64,000 nucleotides of DNA, taken from positions 75,059-139,058 of IMG/VR virus record IMGVR_UViG_3300032331_000527. One strand, written 5' to 3'. A program made the position numbers and the translations under genes. Shown here in pieces: positions 27,009 to 46,529 of this stretch. Source of the stretch: a virus. The notes beneath the pieces are model-generated. The model made no database searches and had not been told where the DNA came from. It saw nothing but the letters and a program-made list of their open reading frames with translations. How positions within the stretch are numbered: position 1 is the first letter of the stretch; each line of letters starts with the position of its first letter.

Positions 27009-27084
27009 TGGCTCGGGGTGATGGGCTCGAACCACCAACACACAGATTCAAAGTCTGTAGTTCTACCAATTGAACTAACCCCGA
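27009..27084 (-). tRNA. tRNA-Gln (TTG)
   Basis: Cloverleaf, anticodon arm ACAGA-CTTTGAA-TCTGT, TTCGA loop, encoded CCA. Confidence 0.92.
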
Positions 27085-27350: not shown

Positions 27351-27890
27351 TTATGGATTAGTAGGAGATTTGGGTACATCGAATACGAACGTAATACGTT
27401 CAACTTCCGAAATGTTTTTCGCAGAGTGCATCTTTTTGTTATCGAACCAAAAGAACGTTCCTGGACTAATTATATGTTCTTCACCGTCTACTTCATACAG
27501 ATACTCTCCTTGGAGAGCAAAATGATATCTGTCACGCGAAAGATAATACGTTCCGTCATCAATATGTCGTCCCATACTTCCACCGACCTGAAGTCGAAAG
27601 AACGCTGCGCGAGAAGTTTGCTCGATGTTCCAAGATCTCAACCATTCGTGAATCTCGGTATACTTATCAAACAAAGGAGTGTTTTGCTGCTGTTCACAAT
27701 TCTTGGGATTAATACGCTTCGACGGTACAACAGCCATAACGAGTGGAAGAAATCCATATGGATCCAGATCGCCAGCGATATTATCGTAAGTAGAAACAGC
27801 TTTCCAGTCGCCAGGATTATCTAATACCTGTTGAAGCACAGGCTGATATAATTCTTCGTAACTGATAAATCTAAAATTGGTCATAATCAA
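27351..27890 (-). CDS. Aspartyl/asparaginyl beta-hydroxylase-like 2OG-Fe(II) oxygenase
   Basis: HIDDGTYY..RDRYH...WFDNKKMHSA.N....RITFVFD. Confidence 0.82.
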   Translation of the reverse strand: MIMTNFRFISYEELYQPVLQQVLDNPGDWKAVSTYDNIAGDLDPYGFLPLVMAVVPSKRINPKNCEQQQNTPLFDKYTEIHEWLRSWNIEQTSRAAFFRLQVGGSMGRHIDDGTYYLSRDRYHFALQGEYLYEVDGEEHIISPGTFFWFDNKKMHSAKNISEVERITFVFDVPKSPTNP

Positions 27891-27894
27891 TCCT

Positions 27895-28213
27895 GTGTGA
27901 AACGGGCCCGTTCTGTTCCAAGGTGGAGCCCATACCCGTGAGATTACGCCGCTAGGCGAGTCTCGATGAGTGCATTATCGTTTGCATCTAGAACGTCGCT
28001 TTGGTCTACTCGTACCTTTACTACAATCCGTCGAACCTGTTTCGCCCCCATCAAAGATACACAATATCAAGCACCCTCTTGACCGCAGCCACTCACTTCC
28101 GTCGAAGCTATTCAAACGTGGTAGGACCCGTCGGCATTGTGTATCTATGGTGGAGGCGTCGGGTACTGCCCCCGAGTCCGAATCGTCTATTCTGAACGCC
28201 TCAACAACCTTAG
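27895..28213 (-). ncRNA. ssrA: Circularly permuted (two-piece) tmRNA with tag ANDNALIETRLAA
   Basis: Acceptor piece ...GACTCGGGGGCAGTACCCGACGCCTCCACCA (CCA at 28148) precedes the coding piece GGGGGCGAAACAGGTTCGACGG (28049). G3.U70 pair present. Tag ORF 27985-27944. Outer ends are approximate. Confidence 0.92.
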
Positions 28214-28217
28214 CGTA

Positions 28218-28352
28218 TTATTTATAATACCACTTTACGGGTGGATTGTCAAGAAGGAATTTCCTAGCCTGTGTCTCAGACCAGTTATTGATACAGATAT
28301 ATCGCGGGCAATCCCAGTAGATAAAAGCCCACGAGCTATAGTGCTCGCTCAT
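28218..28352 (-). CDS. Small hypothetical protein (44 aa)
   Basis: MSEHYSSWAFIYWDCPRYICINNWSE..., with an ATGA overlap on the exonuclease stop. Confidence 0.4.
   Translation of the reverse strand: MSEHYSSWAFIYWDCPRYICINNWSETQARKFLLDNPPVKWYYK
28219..28252 (-). promoter_or_regulatory. Overlapping early (TTGACA-N17-TATTAT) and late (TATAAATA) promoters for the tmRNA
   Basis: -35 at 28252-28247, -10 at 28229-28224, TATAAATA at 28226-28219. Confidence 0.72.
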
Positions 28353-34262: not shown

Positions 34263-34733
34263 TCACTTATCCTCCATATGCTCATAACAGGTATGACGGT
34301 ATCCGCCGTCTTCGGTAGGCCAGCCGCAGCTGGTAACTTCATAGCATCCTGGCTCGTCACAACAATTCAGGACTTCTTTTAGTTCCTTGAAATGATATTC
34401 GCGCATGTCTTCGCGACCTTGCTCGAATGCTCCCTTGAGCATACGCCTGGCATCGGGCAATGCCTCAGCGTTAAACTCATTGCTGATGAATAGCCCATCA
34501 CTACACAATGGCGCATAAGCATCAGGGCCAAAACCAAGGCGTTCATAAATCAGATAACGGTATGATCCGCTTTCTGCGCCATGAGCAGCAATGTGTTTGA
34601 ACACCCAACGAGTAACTGCAAGCTTCATATCATAATCGCAGGTTTCTGCGAGATTGTCAAGTTCTTTTTCACGCTCAGCCATTGCTTCACCTATCTTTGC
34701 GAAATCTTCCCACATATCATCTTTGTCGGTCAT
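34263..34733 (-). CDS. Hypothetical protein with C-terminal Cys/His cluster
   Basis: SYRYLIYERLGF..DAY and CDEPGC...CGWP...C.EH. Confidence 0.6.
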   Translation of the reverse strand: MTDKDDMWEDFAKIGEAMAEREKELDNLAETCDYDMKLAVTRWVFKHIAAHGAESGSYRYLIYERLGFGPDAYAPLCSDGLFISNEFNAEALPDARRMLKGAFEQGREDMREYHFKELKEVLNCCDEPGCYEVTSCGWPTEDGGYRHTCYEHMEDK

Positions 34734-34939
34734 GGGATCATATCCACAATTCGACCAGTCTGCTCACTCACAGCACGCACGCGAATAGTATATGGTGTTG
34801 CGTTTTGAGCCCGCTTTACTTGCATCATGCGCTGAGTAATTTCCTGAGAGTTGTTGATGATAGAACCCTGACAAACAGTCCAATCCATAACGACTTGTCC
34901 AGAAAGACCCAGCATCATCATTTCTATGCGTACAAACAT
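34730..34939 (-). CDS. Hypothetical protein
   Basis: ATGA-coupled ORF. Confidence 0.5.
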   Translation of the reverse strand: MFVRIEMMMLGLSGQVVMDWTVCQGSIINNSQEITQRMMQVKRAQNATPYTIRVRAVSEQTGRIVDMIP

Positions 34940-34940
34940 A

Positions 34941-35225
34941 TCAAAACTCCTTCCATATGTAGCTTGAGTTTTTGGTCTTGAACTTTACGGTCCAGAAACC
35001 TTCATCATTGACTGACTCCTCAGTGATCTCGGTAATCGGTGTGGTCTGCCAGTAATCTGACGCGGAGTATGTACGACCATACGGCGAGCCGACGCGAACA
35101 CCATAACCAACCATAGGATAGTCGGCATTCTTTACAGCCGTGCCGCTTTCAGCGTCAAGGATTTCACACATAGGCCCGGAGTCACCAGCACCATCTTTGT
35201 CACGCACCAACGAATATCTAGGCAT
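34941..35225 (-). CDS. Hypothetical protein
   Basis: MPRYSLVR..DGAGDSG...WQTT.ITEI...FKT.NS.Y phage family. Confidence 0.55.
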   Translation of the reverse strand: MPRYSLVRDKDGAGDSGPMCEILDAESGTAVKNADYPMVGYGVRVGSPYGRTYSASDYWQTTPITEITEESVNDEGFWTVKFKTKNSSYIWKEF

Positions 35226-35575
35226 CAGTCTAATCCAAAATGATCTTTGATTGATGTGGATACAGGAAATGTCCTGCATTTATATTGCGAATCATCAGCA
35301 AGTGTGATGCACTCCTCAGCGACTAACTTGATAAGCTTCATAACATCATCGGAAATATCCACACCTTCGCGCCAGCGAGAAAGTATCTCATCTCCATCAA
35401 CGCGAAAGCCAGCTTGAGTAATGATCTCGTGTAAACGCTCTTCGGTAATCAACGGTTCTCTCCTTGGACCCCACGGTGAAAAATCTTCATACTCACCATC
35501 ATCTAGTGGATTATATCCTCCGAATGGCATCACTTCACCACACAACGAGTCTGGATGTTGGTATCGTTCATCCAA
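35225..35575 (-). CDS. Hypothetical protein
   Basis: Ends ECI...IKDHFG, like the ORF at 26778. Confidence 0.5.
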   Translation of the reverse strand: MDERYQHPDSLCGEVMPFGGYNPLDDGEYEDFSPWGPRREPLITEERLHEIITQAGFRVDGDEILSRWREGVDISDDVMKLIKLVAEECITLADDSQYKCRTFPVSTSIKDHFGLD

Positions 35576-35718
35576 CGTCCATTGACATCCTTAGCAGCCT
35601 TTTGGACGACGATAGCAGCGACCTCACAAGCCTGCTGCCCTTTGTATTCCTGTTGGGAGACTGAAACACCATTATAGGCATTGGTCACTACGATCAGGAC
35701 ATATAGCATCACTTGCAC
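35530..35718 (-). CDS. Small hypothetical protein
   Basis: Hydrophobic N-terminus and an ACE.AA...CV pattern. Confidence 0.45.
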   Translation of the reverse strand: MQVMLYVLIVVTNAYNGVSVSQQEYKGQQACEVAAIVVQKAAKDVNGRWMNDTNIQTRCVVK

Positions 35719-36086
35719 TCCCTTACATGCTTGCAGTCTTTACGAAAGCCGAAGCCAACACAAGTGCAGCTCCAGTGCGAACCATCACAAGTTACAGTGT
35801 ACGACGAGCCAGGCTTTGAACCCTTGACAGAGAAAAGCTTCTTGCTACTAGCAGCAGGCGCTGGCAAATAGCTCTGAAGGAAAGCTTTACACCAAGCCTT
35901 CTCTATCACGCGGACGGGAAACTTGGCATCACCCGTAGACAGGCAGAAAACATCATTGCCAAAGCCTTTGAGATTAGGCACGATGGTGCCGGTGTACTGA
36001 TTCCACTCACGGATTACACCAGCAGCATACACAGCTGGATTACGAGCGTCGCGGACTTGGACAGTTACAACATCGCCAACTTTCAT
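35709..36086 (-). CDS. SWIM zinc-finger protein
   Basis: YTV...WSCTCVGFGFRKDCKHV. Confidence 0.75.
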   Translation of the reverse strand: MKVGDVVTVQVRDARNPAVYAAGVIREWNQYTGTIVPNLKGFGNDVFCLSTGDAKFPVRVIEKAWCKAFLQSYLPAPAASSKKLFSVKGSKPGSSYTVTCDGSHWSCTCVGFGFRKDCKHVRECK

Positions 36087-36109
36087 GCCTGATCTCCTAT
36101 CTATGAAGT

Positions 36110-36138
36110 ATTATATCATCGATTTCGATAGCTGTCAA
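36110..36138 (-). promoter_or_regulatory. Early sigma70-type promoter
   Basis: TTGACA-N17-TATAAT. Confidence 0.75.
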
Positions 36139-36709
36139 GTATCACGTCTATCGTACCAAACATCTGCTCTATCGTGCCATTGTTATAGACAATAGCATCT
36201 ACAGGCTCTCTGTTCCAAGCAGTTTCGCTCGTGTGAATATGCTCAGGATTTTTGCCAAACCAATCGGGAAGAGGACCACGCTGAACGTGCCAAATCTTGC
36301 CACCAAGACGACGAATCATTTCTATTTCATTGGGAAAGCGCACGTCACTGATAACGAAGTCGCTTATGCCAAGTGAAAGATGATCCAATATACGCTTTTC
36401 TGTGGCTAACGCCCAGATTTCATTATGGAGATGATTTCTCATGACTTCAGTTCCCATGAACTGAAGCATATATCGCGGAGACACATCAAAGCCAAGACGC
36501 TTGCTCCACCATTCGTCTTTGATTTCACGCTCATCGCGAGACTGTTTGGTATCACCTTCGAGCATATCACGATCCCAGCCAAAGATACACGCAGCTGCAT
36601 CCTTCAGTGTTTCTGCGAAGGACACGCCGACATAATCGTGCTGTTTCATGAGATGCTCAGCCGCAGTACCTTTGCCTGAGCCAATGAGTCCACACAATCC
36701 AATGATCAC
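36116..36709 (-). CDS. Deoxynucleoside monophosphate kinase (gp1-like)
   Basis: MIIGLCGLIGSGKGT, SFA..LKD, PR..LQ..GTE, SDVRFPNE, H.SE. Confidence 0.9.
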   Translation of the reverse strand: MIIGLCGLIGSGKGTAAEHLMKQHDYVGVSFAETLKDAAACIFGWDRDMLEGDTKQSRDEREIKDEWWSKRLGFDVSPRYMLQFMGTEVMRNHLHNEIWALATEKRILDHLSLGISDFVISDVRFPNEIEMIRRLGGKIWHVQRGPLPDWFGKNPEHIHTSETAWNREPVDAIVYNNGTIEQMFGTIDVILDSYRNR

Positions 36710-36960
36710 TTATCATTCTCCATAGAACGAGCCACAAGTCCATCAGCGACTTGATAGAACTCTTCAGCCATTCGTCTTATGCCATATGCTTCTACCCACG
36801 TTTCATGGATCGTATGGAAAGCAGTATCGAGAGCGAGTTCTGCTGCTTCGCGCTCATCCATTCCTTGTGCGACTAGTTTATCCGTATTAGCGTGCACAAA
36901 ACCCAAGAATGAGTTCTTTATCATACGAATTCTATGGGCTTTGAGCTTGTCGGTAGTCAT
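36706..36960 (-). CDS. Hypothetical protein
   Basis: Coupled ORF. Confidence 0.5.
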   Translation of the reverse strand: MTTDKLKAHRIRMIKNSFLGFVHANTDKLVAQGMDEREAAELALDTAFHTIHETWVEAYGIRRMAEEFYQVADGLVARSMENDK

Positions 36961-37205
36961 AGAGGCATATCCATGTCTAGGAATTTGAGTTCCAAGAACT
37001 TGCGAAAGTTCTCAGGTGTATCTGTTATATATGACTGTCGGATGAGCCAGAGAATGCGATCGCTATTCGTCTCGCGAGCTTTCATATCATGCTCGTCAAA
37101 CACAACGAAACCACGATCTTCGAGTATTTCGATGAGATCGTCAGTATCGAAGTCGTTGATATCTACGTCTACATCTACGTCTACTGTAACAGTTTTACGA
37201 CTCAT
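36957..37205 (-). CDS. Hypothetical acidic protein
   Basis: VDVDVDVDINDFDTDDLIEILE..G pattern. Confidence 0.55.
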   Translation of the reverse strand: MSRKTVTVDVDVDVDINDFDTDDLIEILEDRGFVVFDEHDMKARETNSDRILWLIRQSYITDTPENFRKFLELKFLDMDMPL

Positions 37206-37674
37206 TGGATTCTTCCTCATCAACCATGAAGTCGCTGATGGCGAAACACTCGTCAATATCAGCGGGAACGTTTTCCTTCACCCAACGCCAGTCGTGCTCG
37301 GAGATATCATAATAGTCTTCCTCATCACTTTCGCTGCAATACTTACCACAAAAGCCTACTCCAGACTCATAGTAGAAAGCTTCAACATCAAAGCCAAGCT
37401 CAGCAATATGCTTATAGAATCCGATAGGCGGAGCCCACGCAGAATCGAACCATATATCTAGCGATCCCTCGCTAAGATTATCAACTGCGTCGCTGCATTC
37501 CACGTCCCATTTCGTGCCCCAATTTTCAGCGCACCAACCATACTCCCACTCTCCTTCGGGAGCAGGCATGAAAGTCATCATAGGATTACCTTGGACAAAG
37601 GCTTCAGCTAGACGCTTCAGCTCGCTCTGATCCTTGTGTCCAAATGTAGCAACGTTCTGGCACCAATTAGGCAT
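37195..37674 (-). CDS. YubB/DUF1281 ferredoxin-like protein
   Basis: MPNWCQN...WYGWC.ENWGTKWD-type motif (WEYGWCAENWGTKWD)...FDSAWAPP...YYESG..FCG. Confidence 0.8.
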   Translation of the reverse strand: MPNWCQNVATFGHKDQSELKRLAEAFVQGNPMMTFMPAPEGEWEYGWCAENWGTKWDVECSDAVDNLSEGSLDIWFDSAWAPPIGFYKHIAELGFDVEAFYYESGVGFCGKYCSESDEEDYYDISEHDWRWVKENVPADIDECFAISDFMVDEEESNES

Positions 37675-37832
37675 TAGACTACTCCACAGGCTTTATAGAA
37701 ACGGTCGAAGTCGAACTTCGCATTGATGCGCTTACACGCAGTCGCAGCAGCGATCGCGGCGTTCAGTCGTGCGTGAGGATCCATGATATTACGAATCTCT
37801 TCAGCGAAGATTTCAAAATGCTTGCGTGTCAT
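37674..37832 (-). CDS. Small hypothetical protein
   Basis: Manual translation MTRKHFEIFAEEI...NAKFDFDRFYKACG. Confidence 0.6.
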   Translation of the reverse strand: MTRKHFEIFAEEIRNIMDPHARLNAAIAAATACKRINAKFDFDRFYKACGVV

Positions 37833-37834
37833 GT

Positions 37835-38038
37835 TCAGCTCCGTTCAATAATGTCAAGAAGATCGTTCAGCCACATTTCCTCATTGGCTAGACGGCAGTT
37901 GATACCCAGATCAAACTCGTCGTCAGCCGAAACTCTAACGGCTAACGCACGCCTCACGTCGTCCAGACGATCGTAAAGCTGTTCGACAATCTCTTCTTTC
38001 GCTGTTTCTGGATTAGCGGCAAGGAACGTCACACTCAT
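37835..38038 (-). CDS. Small acidic hypothetical protein
   Basis: Coupled ORF, D/E rich. Confidence 0.55.
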   Translation of the reverse strand: MSVTFLAANPETAKEEIVEQLYDRLDDVRRALAVRVSADDEFDLGINCRLANEEMWLNDLLDIIERS

Positions 38039-38271
38039 GCTGCTTGCTCCGCCTGTTCAGAATAAAGTTCGTCCAGCCAAGCCTTGGCATAAGCTTTCGA
38101 CTCGTGTAGAAGCTTGCGCTCTTCTGAGGTACGAGTAGCGACGAGGCACCAGACTCCAGGCTCGCGCTCGGAAAAGAGTTCAAAAGTCCTAGAGCCGTTA
38201 TAGCGGACCATGCCCCACCAAGGGTCGAACGCAACAATCCAACCGTCGCAGATAGCCATTTCGAAAGTCAT
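38035..38271 (-). CDS. Hypothetical protein
   Basis: Start at MTFEM after a GGAG RBS. Confidence 0.55.
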   Translation of the reverse strand: MTFEMAICDGWIVAFDPWWGMVRYNGSRTFELFSEREPGVWCLVATRTSEERKLLHESKAYAKAWLDELYSEQAEQAA

Positions 38272-38284
38272 GCTAAATTCTCCC

Positions 38285-38542
38285 TCAGAGTTCGCTATAG
38301 ATTTCGCCGTCGGCGTGACGATACACGGTTTCGTTAACGAACTCGTCATCCATATCGAAGAACGAAACGGTAAACTCGCCGAGGATACAGACGCCAAAGT
38401 CACCAAACTCGCCGATGAGGTCGCCAGCTTCGGCACCAGCAAAGCCCATGAAATCCGTTTCATCCATAGGGCGGAACTGAATGGTCTCGAGCAAAATCTG
38501 GGCGTCGGCTACGGTACGGGGGGCGGAGATAGAGATTTGCAT
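38285..38542 (-). CDS. Small acidic early protein
   Basis: Own promoter and AAGGA RBS, D/E rich. Confidence 0.6.
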   Translation of the reverse strand: MQISISAPRTVADAQILLETIQFRPMDETDFMGFAGAEAGDLIGEFGDFGVCILGEFTVSFFDMDDEFVNETVYRHADGEIYSEL

Positions 38543-38566
38543 TGGATTTCCTTTCATCATATTTTA

Positions 38567-38595
38567 ATTGTAGCTGGTTGGCATGAAATTGTCAA
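38567..38595 (-). promoter_or_regulatory. Early promoter (TACAAT class)
   Basis: CCTTGACA-N17-TACAAT. Confidence 0.75.
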
Positions 38596-38807
38596 GGGCG
38601 CTGGTCGAGCGTAACCTGACGAATTTCGAACCAAAACTCGTCGGCCTCAAGGTCTTCGGCCTCGGTCATTTCTTGGACATAAGCCTCGCCCACTTCGGCG
38701 GCAAGGGCGTGGGTCGAATAGGCCCCAATGACCTCGACAATAAAATCGTCGCCACCTTCAGAATTCCAGTCGGCACGACCCCCGATTACAACGTAAATGT
38801 TAGCCAT
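38592..38807 (-). CDS. Small highly acidic early protein
   Basis: Own promoter and GGAG RBS. EMTEAEDLEADEF. Confidence 0.62.
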   Translation of the reverse strand: MANIYVVIGGRADWNSEGGDDFIVEVIGAYSTHALAAEVGEAYVQEMTEAEDLEADEFWFEIRQVTLDQRP

Positions 38808-38849
38808 ATTGTCAAGCTCCAGTTTCTAACGAATCACCCTACATTATTC

Positions 38850-38878
38850 ATTGTAGGGGGCTTAGCCTTGATTGTCAA
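38850..38878 (-). promoter_or_regulatory. Early promoter (repeated CCCCCTACAATG class)
   Basis: GCCCTTGACAATC...CCCCCTACAATG, 17-nt spacer. Confidence 0.8.
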
Positions 38879-39032
38879 GGGCCCCTTTGCGGCTTTTTCC
38901 GCGAGCGATATAGCGGGTCTTGCGGAGTCCAGCGGCTACGGCCACGGGAGCTACAGTCACGCTCCTGTTGGCGAGAAAAGTGGCGATAGCGGCGGTATTA
39001 GCGGTGTTGGTGGGCTTTACGGTAACGGCCAT
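38862..39032 (-). CDS. Small basic early protein
   Basis: GGAG RBS and own promoter. AIATFLA...RKTRYIARGKSRK. Confidence 0.55.
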   Translation of the reverse strand: MAVTVKPTNTANTAAIATFLANRSVTVAPVAVAAGLRKTRYIARGKSRKGALDNQG

Positions 39033-39062
39033 CGGTAAACTCCATTGCATCATCATATTATC

Positions 39063-39091
39063 ATTGTAGGGGGTATATTCGTGGTTGTCAA
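39063..39091 (-). promoter_or_regulatory. Early promoter (repeated CCCCCTACAATG class)
   Basis: GGCCTTGACAACC...TACCCCCTACAATGATAAT. Confidence 0.8.
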
Positions 39092-39103
39092 GGCCCCTAA
39101 ACG

Positions 39104-39133
39104 AAAATACCGCCCTTTCGAGCGGTATTTTTT
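39104..39133. terminator. Bidirectional intrinsic terminator
   Basis: AAAATACCGC-cctttcga-GCGGTATTTTTT. Confidence 0.75.
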
Positions 39134-39146
39134 GTAGCTTTTTTTG

Positions 39147-39431
39147 TTACAGACGTAACAGCTTTTTTGCCATTTGTAACTCGTTAATGGCGGTTCGTAA
39201 GTCGAATTTTTCGTGATTTTCGTGGAACTTTACTTTACTTTCGATTTGGTTTATTACCTTTAGGACCTCGAATTTACTAGTAAAATCAGCGACTTGAAGT
39301 AAACGCTTGGCCTCGATTAAATCTATACTATATTCTACCCACTTATCGGTGGGGTTAAACTTAGGAACCCCACGGCTATACTTACGACCCGCGATTTGTA
39401 CATTTTTATACTTGAGAATTACATTTGACAT
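39147..39431 (-). CDS. Basic hypothetical early protein
   Basis: GGAG RBS, own promoter and terminator. Confidence 0.62.
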   Translation of the reverse strand: MSNVILKYKNVQIAGRKYSRGVPKFNPTDKWVEYSIDLIEAKRLLQVADFTSKFEVLKVINQIESKVKFHENHEKFDLRTAINELQMAKKLLRL

Positions 39432-39457
39432 TTTTCGTTCTCCAGCGTCCAATTATC

Positions 39458-39486
39458 ATTGTAGGGGGTACTGAAGCGATTGTCAA
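39458..39486 (-). promoter_or_regulatory. Early promoter (repeated CCCCCTACAATG class)
   Basis: GGCCTTGACAATC...TACCCCCTACAATGATAAT. Confidence 0.8.
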
Positions 39487-39494
39487 GGCCTAAT

Positions 39495-40172
39495 TTAATG
39501 GAGCGCCGCGCCCCCCGAAAGGTCGAAGCAAGAGCCGGTAACATGAGCCGACTCATCGGACAACAGAAAGAAAATCATGTTGGCTACATCAACTGGTGTG
39601 GTGTTGCGCCCCATAGCTGAATGGGCATTGATTTTCGTTCTGTTGGCGTTCCAACGATTTTCGGTGAATCCAGGCAGAATCGTGTTAGCACGAATTCCTT
39701 TCATGCCATACTCTTGGGCGATGCTCTGTGTAAATGTGTTCACCGCTGCCTTCGAAGCGGAGTAGGCGCTCATTCTAGGGAATCCTTTGAACGCCGAACC
39801 TGAGATGATGGATACGATATTCCCCTTCTTCTGTTCTAGGAAATGAGGAATGATGGCGCGAGTGGTGTTGACTACTCCATTAAAGTTGAGCATCATCGTT
39901 GCGTCGAAATCTTCCTTGCTAGTTTCATGGAACAGTTGTTTGGCAGATTCCATAGAAGGGAGACCGCCAGCGATATTGACGACAGCATCAATCTGTCCGC
40001 GAGCACTAATAGCAGAAGCGAAGAAGTTGTTCACCGCCTCTGCGTCTGTGACGTCAACAACGTTGTCACTCTTGCGGCTACACATAATGATATCCCAATC
40101 ATTATCCAAAAGCTTTTTGGCTGTTTCCTGAGCCATCCAGCTAGTGCCTCCTGTGATGATGGCGACTGGCAT
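39495..40172 (-). CDS. Short-chain dehydrogenase/reductase
   Basis: AIITGG, VNIAG, S, YSASK catalytic motif, GIRAN.I.PG. Confidence 0.9.
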   Translation of the reverse strand: MPVAIITGGTSWMAQETAKKLLDNDWDIIMCSRKSDNVVDVTDAEAVNNFFASAISARGQIDAVVNIAGGLPSMESAKQLFHETSKEDFDATMMLNFNGVVNTTRAIIPHFLEQKKGNIVSIISGSAFKGFPRMSAYSASKAAVNTFTQSIAQEYGMKGIRANTILPGFTENRWNANRTKINAHSAMGRNTTPVDVANMIFFLLSDESAHVTGSCFDLSGGAALH

Positions 40173-40513
40173 TATTCAGTCTCTTCTTTGAATTCCAAAC
40201 GCAATCCAAGCTGCTTGAAAATATGATCACGAGTTATGTGTTGAATCTCGGAAACTGTTTCCGCTTGTCCGATGAACTTATGATTAAGGAACCAACCGTA
40301 GTAAAGACCGTCTATACGCACAATCTTGACCGGAATATAAGCGCGATCATCCTTATCATAATCTACGATGTCGTCTGTTGAGATTTGTCCAGAGATTTCT
40401 CCATCGTCTTCGACATGCTTCTTAATGAATTTCTTATATACAAGATCTCCCAAGAATGCGCCAATGATCCAGGTGACTCCATAGAAGAGTACGTTGTAAA
40501 AGAACGGTTCCAT
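40172..40513 (-). CDS. Hypothetical membrane-anchored protein
   Basis: N-terminal hydrophobic helix and FIGQ motif. Confidence 0.6.
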   Translation of the reverse strand: MEPFFYNVLFYGVTWIIGAFLGDLVYKKFIKKHVEDDGEISGQISTDDIVDYDKDDRAYIPVKIVRIDGLYYGWFLNHKFIGQAETVSEIQHITRDHIFKQLGLRLEFKEETE

Positions 40514-40522
40514 TTATTTTCC

Positions 40523-41368
40523 TTATGCTAAGAACGATTCGAGTGTGTTGGTGAACTGAGAACTTTGATACGCTTTCTGCCACTGGATACGGACTTCCTT
40601 TCTATTCTCCATACCCATCTTTCCCCATGCGCCTTCTTTTTCTACGATGTCAACGAACTGGGGAAAATACTTCCTAAGCTCGTACGCAGCTTGCTCCTGC
40701 AATTCATGATTGCGAAACGTAGAGTTGCCTCCTGCGCTGTTGTGATTATAATTGAAGAAATACTTATAGATCACTGCATTCTTGAATCCCTTCGTGAGCA
40801 TCGAAAGAGTGATCCAGTAATCCTCATAGAGTTTAATATTCTTATTCTGCTGATACATCCCGTCGAAACGAATTCCTTCACGCTCCATCCAGTCTGTGCG
40901 AAGTCCGTATGTCGCATACGAGCGACCCACTTCTTTGACATTATCTTCGACGTGATTGTTTCCACCACGTGCAGAAAAGCCCACTTGCATATACTCGTCG
41001 AGCATCTCGCTGACCATATCGTACATTTTCAACCATTCAGCTTCCTCCATACCATTGAACTGTTTCAGTTCTTCATTACGCCAACCAAACGTAGCAAGAT
41101 CATCGATGAACCAAACTTTCCCCTTACCTACTTCAGGATGATCAATACACCGCTGCCTAATATCAGCAATCCCATCAATATCAAGGGGATTAGCGATAAT
41201 GCGCACAGTATCAGGAACATGAGGTCGAAGGTGAGAAACCCTATCCTCTCTCGTGAAAACATAGACGTTCTCGTGGAGCGCCTTCGGAATCTGAAAAATT
41301 GCACGCTGATTGTCCTCGCGCATGAACGTTGTAATGATAATTTTAAGTGGAGAAAGTGATGAACTCAT
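40523..41368 (-). CDS. TET-associated glycosyltransferase (TAGT-like, GT-A fold)
   Basis: GIADIRQ...WFIDD...YEDY.ITL.ML..G...SAGGNSTFR...IQWQKAY. In the same operon as the TET/JBP gene. Confidence 0.75.
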   Translation of the reverse strand: MSSSLSPLKIIITTFMREDNQRAIFQIPKALHENVYVFTREDRVSHLRPHVPDTVRIIANPLDIDGIADIRQRCIDHPEVGKGKVWFIDDLATFGWRNEELKQFNGMEEAEWLKMYDMVSEMLDEYMQVGFSARGGNNHVEDNVKEVGRSYATYGLRTDWMEREGIRFDGMYQQNKNIKLYEDYWITLSMLTKGFKNAVIYKYFFNYNHNSAGGNSTFRNHELQEQAAYELRKYFPQFVDIVEKEGAWGKMGMENRKEVRIQWQKAYQSSQFTNTLESFLA

Positions 41369-41732
41369 GGAGACTCATAGCCTTATCATCTATGTAAGCC
41401 ATACCATACGGCTTACCGAATATCAGTTGATCGAAGGGAACTTTATACGCATCAAGCCAATCAGCTGTAATCTTACCCAGACGAGCAAAAGCTTCATCTG
41501 GATCATTGTAGCAAGATAGCATATGTCTGGCTGTGTGGATAGTGATGTACCATCCTTCGCTATGAATTCTTCTCATACCCTCAATGATATCAAGCTTTGG
41601 TTCGGCTGAGATATATTTTTCATAGATGTCTTGGATGGATTTATCTGAGACGCAGATAGTGTCGTCCAGATCAATAACAATCGACTTACTGAACAAATCC
41701 AGAGTCTGTGGCCGCCTTACGATAGAGTGCAT
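41343..41732 (-). CDS. HAD phosphatase (capsule biosynthesis EcbF/BcbF-like); start uncertain
   Basis: IDLDDTI, HTAR, WL....VPFD.L.FGKP, YIDDKA. Confidence 0.85.
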   Translation of the reverse strand: MHSIVRRPQTLDLFSKSIVIDLDDTICVSDKSIQDIYEKYISAEPKLDIIEGMRRIHSEGWYITIHTARHMLSCYNDPDEAFARLGKITADWLDAYKVPFDQLIFGKPYGMAYIDDKAMSLHEFITFST

Positions 41733-43299
41733 AGAACACTTCCTGGTTAGTTCTGTTATGTGAATGAAGTGGTATCATACTCAAAAACAGAGACGCTGTC
41801 AAGAACAAAGTTAAGCACCACACATGCTCACCATATTTGGCTATGAACGCAGTCTTGTAGGCTTCGCGAGCAGCTTCTTTGCCAGCATCGAAGATGATGA
41901 TCTCCTCGTCTTTCTTGACATACAGTTCCGCGTCGATATAGTCGTAAGGATAGTAGGCGGAATGAGTAAGCTTGGCTAAATCATACAGAATGTTGCCATA
42001 TGCGTCGCCACGAGGATCGATGAGCTTTATCTGCTTGCTGCCAGGATGATAGAAAATATTCGAGAAGCAGAAATCACCATGTGACAACGAGTCTGTCCAA
42101 TGAACAAAACCATCTTCGCTTTCTTTCAGCTCATCGAACTTACGCAGGAACTCACGCGAGAGATCAAAGTCGATATCAGGTTTTTCTTCAACCATCTCTA
42201 AGAAACGTTCCCAGTTCTTTTCAGACATCTTATCGAAGAACTCGGAATAGACACCTGGCTTATAGTAGAACTTGAACGTATCGAGGATACCAAACAGTTT
42301 GTTATAGATTTCCGTCCAGAATGCGGGGTCTGACTCGAGATACAGATAAAGCTCGCGCAGCGTAGGACTATCAATGCGCTCCATCGTGTATGTGGGGCGT
42401 CCGCTTTCTATAGTACCATATGGTTTCTTATCAAGGATACGCGGCGTCAACAACTTTACGGGAAGCGGAAGGTTTTCATACCAATTCATCTCAGCCTGAA
42501 TCTTAGCTGGTTGCGTCTGAGAAGACTTGGTGATAGTCATTCCCTTATCGGTAGCATGAACCTGATTGAATTCACGCGAGTTCTTGATGCCTCGATTTTC
42601 AAGATACTCTTGCAACGTACCGAAGTCTTTGATACTGATTTCTTTGACCTGAATCTCTTCTGCCGAATTATAAAGACTCATAGCTTGAGAAATTTGAATT
42701 TCACCATCTCGCACGCGAGCGCGAGCATTGTAAATTGCTACATGCAACGACTGACGAAAACGAGCACCGTTAGCGAAATAATACACACCACTGACAGCAA
42801 GATTCGTCGGAGGCTTATCAGCAGGCTTATCATGGAACGCTTTGATGCGGCTATCTTCTACTTCAGCCATGCACCAGCGATTCCAGTCAGAAACTTTCTG
42901 TACGCTCACCCAAGAAACAGAACCATTCGCGAACCACATATCAGGAATAGTCTTGACGATGATATCACTCAACAGAACAAGAACTGGTTCGTTCTGTGCG
43001 ATAAGGTCTGTAGAAAGGCCGCAGTAGATAGAAACAGCTGGACCACCATTTCCGATATGAACGTAGTCCTCGAAACGGATTCGTTGGTCATCAGGAAAGT
43101 ACATCTTCACGATTTCGATAATACGATGACCCTGATGCCCAGTCACGATTGTTACGAGACGAGCACCAGCTTCAAAAGCAAATCGAATGTTATGAACGAT
43201 GATAGGGATTTCCTGAAACGGCAGGACGCACTTTGGATAGTTCTTACCCAACTCATTAAAACGAACGCCACGTCCTGCCGCCGGAATCACACACTGCAT
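41686..43299 (-). CDS. Sugar nucleotidyltransferase fused to an APH/choline-kinase-like domain
   Basis: VIPAAGRGVRF...PKC.LP, DFGTL..Y, then HGDFCFSNI...LIDPRG...YDLAKL.HS...LFLSMIPLH. Confidence 0.85.
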   Translation of the reverse strand: MQCVIPAAGRGVRFNELGKNYPKCVLPFQEIPIIVHNIRFAFEAGARLVTIVTGHQGHRIIEIVKMYFPDDQRIRFEDYVHIGNGGPAVSIYCGLSTDLIAQNEPVLVLLSDIIVKTIPDMWFANGSVSWVSVQKVSDWNRWCMAEVEDSRIKAFHDKPADKPPTNLAVSGVYYFANGARFRQSLHVAIYNARARVRDGEIQISQAMSLYNSAEEIQVKEISIKDFGTLQEYLENRGIKNSREFNQVHATDKGMTITKSSQTQPAKIQAEMNWYENLPLPVKLLTPRILDKKPYGTIESGRPTYTMERIDSPTLRELYLYLESDPAFWTEIYNKLFGILDTFKFYYKPGVYSEFFDKMSEKNWERFLEMVEEKPDIDFDLSREFLRKFDELKESEDGFVHWTDSLSHGDFCFSNIFYHPGSKQIKLIDPRGDAYGNILYDLAKLTHSAYYPYDYIDAELYVKKDEEIIIFDAGKEAAREAYKTAFIAKYGEHVWCLTLFLTASLFLSMIPLHSHNRTNQEVFYALYRKAATDSGFVQ

Positions 43300-43314
43300 A
43301 ATATAAAGCTCCTG

Positions 43315-44718
43315 TTAAACGAAATCGAAGATGCTGGTCTTTTGACCTTTTCCAAGCTTATTTAGAATCTCTTCTGCTTCGTCATGGAATCCATTATTTC
43401 CTAAGAAATTCGCCCACTCTTCCGTATCCCACATTGATGGAGATACACCAATCCATCCTTCATGCCACAACGGATGTTCCTTGTTATCACGACGCTGATA
43501 AACGAAACGACGACGAGTCTCTTCATACTTACGAGAGCCACACGTCAACATAGACTCGCGGAAGTACATCACAACGCTCATGCGCTCGAAACCTTCTTCG
43601 TAATCGAACGCAGGTGAGTTGCTATGAACACGATGTGCGTTCATCATAATCAAATCACCAGCACGAATATCAGCAGCCACACGAAACTCTGGGAAGCAAA
43701 GGAAGAATCCGTTATAGTTCTTACCATTATCTAGAACAAGGAGATTACTAAATCCTTTTGGATTGTCAGCATTTTCCCAACTCTCACACAAGTCACCTAC
43801 GTCACGATGAGCAGCTGTGCGGAAATCGCGATTGATAGTTAGAGTCGTGTAGACTGTTTCACCAATACGCCAGTCTTCTCCGAGCTGTTTCATTGCTTCC
43901 GCTTGTCCTTCCCAACGAATAGGAAGCTCGCGCTTGAACACTTGATTAGCAGCTTCGAACAGAGGAACGGCAGCTTCATACTTATCTTTATGATTAGCTT
44001 GCCATCCAGTCTCACGGCAGAAAGGAATGCGTGGATATCTATCCATGAATCCACCGACACCAGAGCGCACACCATTAGCATACGTTGTATCGGAAATCAA
44101 ATCATGAAGGATATGATCTGCTGCCATACGACGTCCTTCTGGACTCTTATCCTTATTCTCTTCATACCAAGTAGTGAAGTCAAATCCCTGAGTCTTCTTC
44201 ACAATCCAGATAGCGCCAGCACCGATTTCTGCGAGATCCTTATTAGCACCAGAGCCACGGCCTTGTAGAGGCTTATCTGGTGTCCTATCATAAAGATCTT
44301 GCAGCATATCTCTGCCAGTGATATCTAACGGAGAACCCTTCATCATATATTGAAGAACAGCTTTCTCACGCTGTGTCACCCAACGGCGAGAACCTTCGCC
44401 GTCAGGAAGCTTCTGGAACGCAGTATCACGCTCGATACCAGCAGCCAGTCCACGATTGTCTGACATCATCGCGCCACTACGCAGATGCTTGTATGCAGCA
44501 TCTGTCAGTTCTTTCGGGAATACGTTCTTACGAAACTTGCATAGCAAATTCTTTTCGCTATGCGTTTCGCCATTAGCAATCTGAAGAGGAGTCAGAGGTT
44601 CGTAAACGTCTGTGTCTTCAGTAAGAACAAGATCGTAACAATCATGGTCTAAGAACTTTCCCAGAAGATGATCCTTCTGGTCGCGTTCGGAATGCTCTAG
44701 ATAAATTACTTTTACCAT
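43315..44718 (-). CDS. TET/JBP-family 2OG-Fe(II) dioxygenase (5-methylpyrimidine oxidase)
   Basis: DRYPRIPFCR.T, YTTLTINRDFRTAAHRD.GD (HxD), GDL..M..H..HSN, RMSVV.Y.RE. Confidence 0.85.
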   Translation of the reverse strand: MVKVIYLEHSERDQKDHLLGKFLDHDCYDLVLTEDTDVYEPLTPLQIANGETHSEKNLLCKFRKNVFPKELTDAAYKHLRSGAMMSDNRGLAAGIERDTAFQKLPDGEGSRRWVTQREKAVLQYMMKGSPLDITGRDMLQDLYDRTPDKPLQGRGSGANKDLAEIGAGAIWIVKKTQGFDFTTWYEENKDKSPEGRRMAADHILHDLISDTTYANGVRSGVGGFMDRYPRIPFCRETGWQANHKDKYEAAVPLFEAANQVFKRELPIRWEGQAEAMKQLGEDWRIGETVYTTLTINRDFRTAAHRDVGDLCESWENADNPKGFSNLLVLDNGKNYNGFFLCFPEFRVAADIRAGDLIMMNAHRVHSNSPAFDYEEGFERMSVVMYFRESMLTCGSRKYEETRRRFVYQRRDNKEHPLWHEGWIGVSPSMWDTEEWANFLGNNGFHDEAEEILNKLGKGQKTSIFDFV

Positions 44719-45812: not shown

Positions 45813-46119
45813 CGTTATTCTCCGTAAGGGGTGATTCGTAGTCTATACTGTTTATGTAGGAAAATTTCTTGTCGTCATCCCACAACTTGAGATAATCATT
45901 ATCTTCATTGAAAATCTTAAGATACTCATCACGACTGATTTCGTAGTGAGTAATGATAGGTGATGGTTCCAAGTGTTTCTGACTGAACTCATGGAACTCG
46001 AAATTTTGTTCTTGCATAATAACTTCGTCGAGCGCATGGTCAATGTCGTCTTCTACTTCCACGACATAGCGCATACGATACTGAGAAAGCACTTCAACCA
46101 TAACAAGCTTCTTAGTCAT
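45802..46119 (-). CDS. Hypothetical protein
   Basis: RMRYVVEV...ALD.V...EFSQKHL..I...F.EDNDY. Confidence 0.6.
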   Translation of the reverse strand: MTKKLVMVEVLSQYRMRYVVEVEDDIDHALDEVIMQEQNFEFHEFSQKHLEPSPIITHYEISRDEYLKIFNEDNDYLKLWDDDKKFSYINSIDYESPLTENNDGD

Positions 46120-46529
46120 TAGATATCACCTTCCTTACGATTTTCGGAATAGAATGCATCGAACGTGCCGCCAGGATATCTAGCCTGAAGCTTATCCACG
46201 TTTCCTGCGATTACTTCATTCGGGTCAATCTGCAACGCATTACACGCATTAGTCCAGTACCAAATCACATCACCGAGTTCCTTGATAAGATGCTGGCGAG
46301 TTTCCTCGGTGTATGGCTTGCCCTGAAACAAAACCTTCTTGAGGATTTCTTGGGCCTCGCCAGCTTCACTAGTCAAGCCAATCATTGCAGTCAGAAGCAA
46401 TGGCACATTGATGACTGTATCCTTATCATAATGTATTTGCTTCACTCTGTCAAGAAATTCCGCACATACGCGACTCTCTTTGCTCGTTACAGCCATAACG
46501 AACTCAGCATACTTAGCCATATCAATCAT
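46119..46529 (-). CDS. mazG: MazG-like nucleotide pyrophosphohydrolase
   Basis: GL.SEAGE..E..KK..FQGK...KELGDV.WY...N..KL..RYP. Confidence 0.88.
   Translation of the reverse strand: MIDMAKYAEFVMAVTSKESRVCAEFLDRVKQIHYDKDTVINVPLLLTAMIGLTSEAGEAQEILKKVLFQGKPYTEETRQHLIKELGDVIWYWTNACNALQIDPNEVIAGNVDKLQARYPGGTFDAFYSENRKEGDI

Follow-up and report, generated by a model that had tools for sequence, protein, structure and literature searches.

Why does a stretch of more than 2 kb in a phage genome contain no GATC, and does this absence belong to the place where it is found or to the lineage that carries it? The DNA concerned is a window of 64,000 nucleotides (positions 75,059 to 139,058 of the IMG/VR virus record IMGVR_UViG_3300032331_000527), which makes up the final 64 kb of a viral contig of 139,058 bp; coordinates are those of the window, and those marked genome are those of the contig. 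The GATC-free island at 37973–40224 lies, as a first-pass annotation of this DNA had noted, just downstream of an operon for DNA hypermodification, with a TET/JBP-type dioxygenase and a TET-associated glycosyltransferase (TAGT) directly upstream of it in the direction of transcription. That annotation had offered three readings of the island: a window kept free of the phage's own bulky modification, first-injected or unprotected DNA purged of a restriction site, or an origin or packaging site. We find that GATC is avoided at the level of codon choice, both in the island and in a second GATC-free stretch nearby (hole 2, 42166–44114), and that the avoidance appears to follow phage lineage. The explanation we prefer, to which we give about an even chance, is that GATC was purged by synonymous change in one clade of phages and that the island consists of exchangeable early cassettes bearing this purged signature within a patchwork genome. 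On this explanation, GATC absence is no property of this position or of early promoters.

The contig is linear, has no end repeats and is 78% complete according to CheckV. It encodes a T4-type major capsid protein gp23 (family match, E 1.4e-148), and by this match the phage is a T4-like myovirus. Close strain variants come from lake, freshwater and biofilm metagenomes. The island lies 24 kb from the contig end, and all genes around it are on the minus strand.

The GATC gap and its statistics

At 2256 bp, the gap between the GATC sites at 37969 and 40225 exceeds all others in the window and in the contig. A computed scan of both agrees with the first-pass annotation that 37973–40224 is free of GATC and that 36000–37972 holds 15 sites. 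Its statement that gaps elsewhere are about 0.8 kb or less does not hold, as further gaps of 1953 bp (42162–44115), 1445, 1293, 1264, 1206 and 1142 bp are present. The two largest gaps of the contig are only 1.9 kb apart.

Under a uniform null, the probability of a longest gap of at least 2256 bp is 0.020. With a null that preserves the protein sequences and applies the codon frequencies of the genome, the value is 0.035 when gaps are judged by length and 0.0013 when they are judged by the number of sites expected inside (9.41). The codon-aware expectation is 9.41 for the island and 7.69 for hole 2 with hand-set genes, and 7.0 and 10.3 with crude gene calls. For 52 of the 136 strand-merged 4-mers the longest gap reaches E < 0.05 under the uniform null, which is therefore badly anti-conservative and untrustworthy in this genome. 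When every gap of every 4-mer in the contig is scored by its local order-2 Markov expectation, hole 2 ranks first of all with 14.1 expected sites, while the island with an expectation of 7.0 falls outside the top 15 (cut-off 8.2). From this ranking across all words we conclude that the island alone is borderline and that the neighbouring hole 2 is the robust one. Hole 2 crosses a gene boundary, covering the N-terminal two thirds of a nucleotidyltransferase-kinase and the C-terminal 57% of TET. More generally, gap statistics based on a uniform null overstate word deserts, and local expectation, ranking over all words and codon-context tests together provide a calibrated test for them.

Within the island, GATC is the most depleted of the 136 words relative to local expectation. 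Taken together, the 16 palindromic 4-mers occur 119 times there, where the genome rate predicts 122.6, with TCGA and GGCC enriched. The loss is a one-word effect; there is no general clearing of restriction-type words in the island. The GC content of the island is 0.48 compared with 0.434 for the genome, and GAT and ATC triplets are about 40% rarer there (31 and 34, where the genome rate would give about 51). The words AGCA, CTGC, CACA, ATCC and ACTA also have their longest window gap at the island, and the GATC expectations of its single genes are small (0.3–2.2). Over the whole genome the Markov ratio of GATC is 0.75, similar to that of six other palindromes. A restriction-free block was considered for the window and discarded, as only GATC is missing and other palindromes are not depleted.

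Other words have deserts in this contig as well. TTAA is absent for 3863 bp at 34471–38334, a stretch that ends inside the island, TCGA for 5966 bp at genome 29749–35715, and CCCC for 11.8 kb at genome 67352–79155. These deserts are probably explained by composition, because their local Markov expectations are modest (3–6).

GATC avoidance at the codon level

Before a codon that starts with C, aspartate is encoded by GAT and GAC in a ratio of 0:5 in the island and 0:3 in hole 2, compared with 348:58 in the remaining genome. The block that separates the holes has 7:0. Isoleucine following a codon that ends in G is never encoded by ATC in the island (0 of 6) or in hole 2 (0 of 7), compared with 171 of 651 cases in the genome. 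GATC avoidance is real in both holes, specific for GATC, and operates at the DNA level.

Codon alignments of TET and the nucleotidyltransferase with the relatives introduced below reveal how GATC was removed. Columns that hold GATC in most of the GATC-rich relatives are occupied by synonymous alternatives in a GATC-poor clade and in this phage: GAT-CAT becomes GAC-CAT, GAT-CGN becomes GAT-AGA, TGG-ATC becomes TGG-ATT or TGG-ATA, and GAT-CCN becomes GAC-CCA. This is a clear case of lineage-specific purging of a single word at aligned synonymous sites, with its sharpest signal inside the TET hypermodification genes and not at promoters.

As a background to these ratios, aspartate before a C-starting codon is encoded by GAT in 83–100% of cases in the phage family (the contig and loci L002–L034), against 51–69% in other contexts. 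This family-wide avoidance of GAC-C by itself generates GATC.

GATC loss follows the lineage

Relatives were collected by a scan with the TET protein, which yielded 35 loci whose TET is 72–82% identical, or 100% identical over a partial match. They fall into two classes of GATC density, with 2–4 sites per kb in six loci (L004, L007, L014, L018, L019 and L020) and 6–9 in most others. The comparison of codon context covered the 23 related loci that span 10 kb or more. In the five GATC-poor loci among them (L004, L014, L018, L019 and L020), the fraction of GAT before C is 0.42–0.62 and that of ATC after G is 0.13–0.22. In the 18 GATC-rich loci the fractions are 0.83–1.00 and 0.34–0.59. This genome has 0.85 and 0.26. 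Its nucleotidyltransferase is 83–86% identical to the poor class and 58–63% to the rest, and a protein at 46119–46529 is 93–95% and 69–80% identical, respectively. Judged by gene identity, the phage groups with the GATC-poor class.

The TET gene (TET/JBP-type 2OG-Fe(II) dioxygenase, 43315–44718, minus strand) contains five GATC sites, all within its first 600 nt. The poor clade has 0, 0, 1, 0 and 1 sites in this gene, and 24 others have a median of 10.5 (range 2–18). The sugar nucleotidyltransferase, fused to a kinase-like (APH) domain (41686–43299, minus strand), has three sites, all near its 3' end, compared with 0, 0 and 1 in the poor clade and a median of 11 (10–17) in nine others. The genes of the island itself behave in the same way. 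The short-chain dehydrogenase/reductase (SDR; 39495–40172, minus strand, GC 0.49) has no GATC, and all four of its homologues in GATC-rich relatives carry 3–5. All 12 homologues of the ORFan e94 in rich relatives carry 1–3 sites, and the gene has none in L004, L019 and here. GATC loss is a trait of the lineage, and the island's own genes follow that lineage.

The position of the island is not conserved as a hole. The first-pass annotation had suggested checking whether relatives with TET and TAGT have the same gap. Both anchors of the region, the gene of the 113-aa protein on one side and e67, g159, g99 or g84 on the other, are present in 16 of the 35 loci (two of them, L011 and L012, being near-duplicates). 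The syntenic region is GATC-free in none of these 16, each of which has 2–18 sites, and their sum of 135 compares with 165 expected from each locus's own rate. The 157,580-bp relative G003, which has the same operon, contains 6.43 GATC per kb with a longest gap of 1088 bp, and a 56,496-bp member of the poor clade contains 2.83 per kb. Holes that match hole 2 are found in clade members, with 3982 bp in L004, 2731 bp in L014 and 1893 plus 1685 bp in L019.

For the island sequence as such, nucleotide searches with 37000–41000 of the phage collection, in which records close to the window may be lacking, gave no near or distant relative, and neither SDR nor the ORFan e71 found a relative in the viral_contigs searches. 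A metagenome scan with SDR gave 18 loci at only 27–35% identity, and a protein search with SDR led to an 11-member cluster with identities of at least 90%.

The island as a cassette region

Transcription proceeds from TET/JBP through the nucleotidyltransferase-kinase, a HAD-type phosphatase-like protein (41343–41732), TAGT (40523–41368), the 113-aa protein g113 (40172–40513) and SDR to a series of small open reading frames, all on the minus strand; a dNMP kinase gene at 36116–36709 follows beyond them. The block between the holes (40225–42165) has 14 GATC, a normal density, and holds g113, TAGT, HAD and the 3' end of the nucleotidyltransferase-kinase gene. The 113-aa protein has no family match; its gene has four GATC and is the upstream anchor of the variable region.

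Four minus-strand promoters of the form TTGACA-N17-TACAAT, starting at 39486, 39091, 38878 and 38595, lie in the island, in agreement with the first-pass annotation. P1 (39458–39486) precedes e94 (39147–39431), P2 (39063–39091) precedes e64 (38862–39056), P3 (38850–38878) precedes e71 (38592–38807) and P4 (38567–38595) precedes e91 (38285–38560), so that each of these four ORFans has its own promoter; the promoters are part of a 48-nt direct-repeat family in four copies. Two further small genes follow on the same strand, the ORFan e79 (38035–38271) and e67 (37835–38038), which encodes a small acidic protein, has three GATC and contains the end of the island. None of e94, e64, e71, e91, e79 and e67 has a Pfam or PHROG match. 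The designation of the four as the strongest early promoters does not stand, as the contig has 37 near-consensus sigma-70 matches, 20 of them without mismatch, and 16 of these 20 lie outside the island. Each of the other 33 strong promoters has 1–12 GATC within 500 bp, and in three of them a GATC abuts the -35 box.

A bidirectional intrinsic-terminator hairpin (39103–39132) lies directly upstream of P2 and forms with it a composite of the promoter-early stem-loop (PeSL) type. It is the only significant upstream fold at the four promoters (minus-strand z -2.9; 2 of 200 shuffled sequences reach an equally good fold); those of the other three have z values of +1.4, +1.2 and -1.5. In three of the four promoters a run of five C directly precedes TACAAT, and these share TACAATGA (39063–39070, 38850–38857 and 39458–39465, minus strand). 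Two promoters of the same subtype are found just downstream of a CmoA gene, at genome 16149 and 16570.

The composition of the island genes is foreign to the contig. The genes e79, e91, e71 and e64 are among its GC-richest (GC 0.53, 0.52, 0.55 and 0.56; z 2.0–3.1), e64 being the GC-richest gene called, and e94 is AT-rich (GC 0.37). The frequent GGCC reported by the first-pass annotation is found: nine sites at 38640–39490 (0.85 kb) compared with 0.80 per kb genome-wide, a 13-fold enrichment in a genome that avoids GGCC (Markov ratio 0.64). Three island GGCC sites lie directly upstream of -35 boxes. Tiles of 300 nt over 37950–40500 have almost no nucleotide match in the 35 loci except for e94, e91 and a weak SDR match, and no protein homologue of e64, e71, e79 or e52 is found in these loci; homologues of e91 occur only in the GATC-poor clade.

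Strain contigs from four runs of four studies, 95–99% identical, were compared over 37500–40700; runs X5 and X7 have no cover in parts of the island, which is not taken as absence. One contig skips 39161–39461 and thereby lacks e94. Another has 229 extra letters between duplicated copies of P3 (38847–38883) and a 188-letter replacement of 38038–38063; these cassette variants come from runs X2 and X8. The points where several contigs diverge, 38560, 39078 and 39112, coincide with the promoter and terminator sequences. In e71 a GATC at 38651 arises through the substitution 38652 G>A, which contigs of two runs, each from a different study, have in common; the GATC-free state is therefore not strictly maintained in nature. 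As this was seen among 40 of the 233 strain differences, the number of GATC-creating variants is at least one. The island is a T4-type hyperplastic region of promoter-ORFan cassettes with foreign composition, and the strain contigs catch gene-cassette turnover in such a PeSL-like region in lake metagenomes.

Proposed lineage purging and a mosaic genome

We propose the following course of events. The clade has lost GATC, and only GATC, by synonymous changes, presumably under pressure from the host, where a restriction system or another factor that reads GATC would be at work. Recombination among diverged relatives would then have turned the genome into a patchwork of purged and unpurged segments, with purging older than the assembly of the present mosaic. 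The island and the central part of TET and the nucleotidyltransferase gene would be two purged segments that survived side by side, split by the 1.9-kb block of normal GATC content. Cassettes are gained, lost and exchanged among strains at promoter and terminator sequences. Signs of a mosaic are found in the operon itself. At columns 45 and 84 of TET the phage has retained a GATC that the rich clades carry and its own clade lacks, part of TAGT resembles the GATC-rich L021 (88%) more than the phage's own clade (83%), and the HAD gene is equally distant from both GATC classes.

Restriction-type purging is the most plausible driver because GATC is removed specifically and at the DNA level. In this sense one half of a reading in the first-pass annotation survives: codon choice and the synonymous changes agree with DNA purged of a restriction-type site. 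The other half, that the island is first-injected DNA, is disfavoured by the T4-like nature of the phage, the absence of the hole in relatives and the GATC-carrying variants.

Several observations weigh against lineage-wide purging combined with a mosaic. Once protein sequence and codon usage are allowed for, GATC is not depleted genome-wide, with 608 sites in coding DNA against 594 expected (ratio 1.02). Aspartate as GAT before C stands at the family norm over the whole genome (0.85), so that the phage as a whole is weakly purged. In L004 and L014, and not in L019, the TET cassette is emptier than its own flanks under a uniform null that is anti-conservative, which hints at a region-specific cause beyond lineage-wide purging. 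SDR, e94 and the GC-rich ORFans are all GATC-free, for which they would need to share a purged background or else be subject to some local cause. We infer the order of events, purging before or after arrival of the cassettes, as none of the relatives compared holds the whole island. The 78%-complete contig itself contains no Dam (PF02086, PF05869), N6/N4 methylase (PF01555), MutH/Sau3AI-type (PF02976) or DpnII (PF04556) protein.

The modification genes and their likely motif

The only PF00145 C5-transferase in the contig aligns with SpCmoX (PDB 8YF3) over residues 6–373 (E 2.8e-104), and both the SPPC motif and the arginine of the GRMV motif that binds the carboxymethyl group are conserved in it. 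A CmoA-like gene adjoins it, and the pair lies at G000:C1 16683–18453 (L001:774–2604, minus strand). SpCmoX requires a GC motif, and CmoA–CmoX makes 5-carboxymethylcytosine, according to the sections consulted of Yang et al. (2025, PMC12783734). Characterised phage pairs of C5-methyltransferase and TET act at GpC, as described in the portion used of Burke et al. (2021, PMC8256090), and known phage T-dioxygenases are described as preferring trinucleotide words such as NTC or NTG. The main text of the three papers on CmoX, C5-methyltransferase/TET and T-dioxygenases, PMC12783734 and PMC8256090 among them, contains no mention of GATC.

The island has 66 GpC per kb, more than the 53 per kb of the genome, and TC is not depleted there. 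The island therefore cannot be free of GpC-type modification. Taken together with the homology of the CmoX-like enzyme, GATC is probably not the modification target. Beside CmoA/CmoX and TET/TAGT, no ordinary C5-methyltransferase is present in the 78% of the genome covered, and the relative G003, which is 90% complete, also has a single PF00145 gene. With a carboxymethyltransferase-like partner, the candidate substrates of TET are 5-methylcytosine from another source, thymine or something else.

These results bear on the proposal that the bulky hypermodification targets GATC and that this word is kept out of the immediate-early genes, which thereby stay readable for host RNA polymerase. If true, the phage would have deleted the target word from the genes that are read first and so shielded them from its own bulky modification, which would be a new design rule. 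Both holes touch genes that are likely needed early, and some phage T-oxidising relatives of TET are described as acting in an NTC context, which includes the T of GATC. Against this stand the CmoX-like nature of the sole C5-transferase, whose solved homologue acts at GpC, the GpC preference of the characterised pairs and the trinucleotide-level preferences of the T-dioxygenases in those same sources, and the undiminished GpC and TC content of the island. GATC also abuts strong promoters elsewhere in the contig, relatives with the same operon have no hole, and the block between the holes, TAGT and HAD included, carries its 14 GATC. We consider the proposal very improbable, and the design rule of an unmodified window is not supported.

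Regional selection, chance and cis-acting sites

Selection might act on the region itself: early cassettes and modification genes that are needed before protection is established could be kept free of a word read by a host nuclease or by a Dam/SeqA/MutH-type system, in the manner of pre-early DNA in T5-like phages. The coincidence of the island with four strong host-type promoters fits this, as do the GATC-specific, codon-level avoidance and the absence of GATC from all three compositionally different pieces of the island; in addition, the TET holes of L004 (3982 bp) and L014 (2731 bp) exceed what their own lower GATC rate predicts. Other observations speak against it. A GATC-free syntenic region occurs in 0 of 16 relatives, the 33 other strong promoters lie near GATC (three with an abutted -35 box), the same promoter subtype at CmoA (genome 16149 and 16570) has three GATC within 500 bp, and TAGT and HAD have seven sites in the same operon. 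The GATC at 38651 is present in contigs of two runs and two studies, and a single word is cleared, unlike in multi-word early islands. Since T4-type genomes are circularly permuted (PMC4122927, in the part drawn on here), no fixed DNA would enter first. We judge regional selection unlikely but a live rival, and still less likely its fuller form, in which the hypermodification genes (TET and the sugar nucleotidyltransferase) of one clade, and in this phage the early cassettes too, are held GATC-free as a functional "safe zone". If this doubtful form were true, a GATC-reading factor would act at the time when these genes are needed, and the holes would not be a relic of ancestry; candidates would be a host nuclease, a Dam/SeqA/MutH-type system that otherwise blocks recombination of diverged cassettes, or a phage enzyme.

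For the island only, chance and composition in short, GC-rich foreign genes have to be considered, with hole 2 as the sole product of real purging. The rarer GAT and ATC triplets (by about 40%) speak for this, and so does the local expectation of 7.0, as gaps of other 4-mers with expectations of 8.2–11.4 occur elsewhere in the contig. The uniform null passes 52 of 136 words, five other words have their longest window gap at the same place, and the expectation per gene is 0.3–2.2. Chance does not readily account for GATC being the most depleted of 136 words by local expectation, for aspartate before C being GAC in five of five cases in a genome with 86% GAT, for the GATC sites in the homologues of SDR (4/4) and e94 (12/12) in rich relatives, or for the two largest gaps of the contig lying 1.9 kb apart. 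We see a small probability for this explanation. The remaining proposal of the first-pass annotation, a replication origin or packaging site, could draw on the cluster of strong promoters. T4 origins use promoter-primed transcripts. A search for iterons, tandem repeats and a skew switch found none of them beyond the four promoter repeats, and there is no strand switch. Relatives and strains differ greatly in this region, which is not what a conserved cis-acting site would show, and nothing connects an origin with GATC loss. This leaves an origin or packaging site with next to no probability. Lineage purging in a patchwork genome thus remains the explanation that we prefer.

Comparison with known systems

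The island is most similar to the hyperplastic regions with PeSL cassettes in T4-type phages, as described in the parts used here of Comeau, Arbiol & Krisch (2014, PMC4122927) and Arbiol et al. (2010, PMC2839356). In common with these, the phage is T4-like, near-perfect TTGACA-N17 promoters are repeated before ORFans that vary between relatives, one island promoter (P2) directly follows a terminator hairpin, and strain indels and replacements break at promoter or terminator sequences. The island differs in that a significant upstream hairpin is present at only one of its four promoters and in its -10 box, TACAAT, which three of the copies carry directly after a run of C. Word deserts do not figure in the portions of the PeSL literature used here.

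Avoidance of restriction sites in phage genomes is known (Rusinov et al. 2018, PMC6286503), and the phiX174 genome is GATC-free (PMC5014478), both as given in the excerpts of these papers that we rely on. The present case shares with it the synonymous removal of a short palindrome and a strength that varies by lineage. It differs in being patchy within one genome and not significant genome-wide after codon usage is taken into account.

In T5-like phages, the first-step-transfer (pre-early) DNA is without restriction sites. The island resembles this DNA in that early, host-promoter-driven small genes lack a restriction-type word. It is unlike it in showing no terminal repeat or fixed end in the 78%-complete contig, in the clearing of a single word, and in a site-free state that is not conserved (0 of 16). 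With the phage cytosine hypermodification systems (PMC8256090, PMC12783734) the genome shares TET/JBP, TAGT and a CmoA/CmoX pair. Those systems read GpC, and no motif-free window is described in the sections of the two papers used here, in contrast to the GATC hole of this phage. Restriction-word avoidance and PeSL-type cassette shuffling are thus already known; here the avoidance concerns a single word, is not conserved and is strongest in hypermodification genes.

Other features of the window

An Rfam row for ryfA scores 22 bits, which is below the gathering score of 80, and is taken as chance. A phage tmRNA gene with the tag ANDNALIETRLAA lies within 27853–28240. The window encodes 16 tRNAs in total, a tRNA-Gln at 27009 and a cluster of 15 at the contig end (55781–63996).

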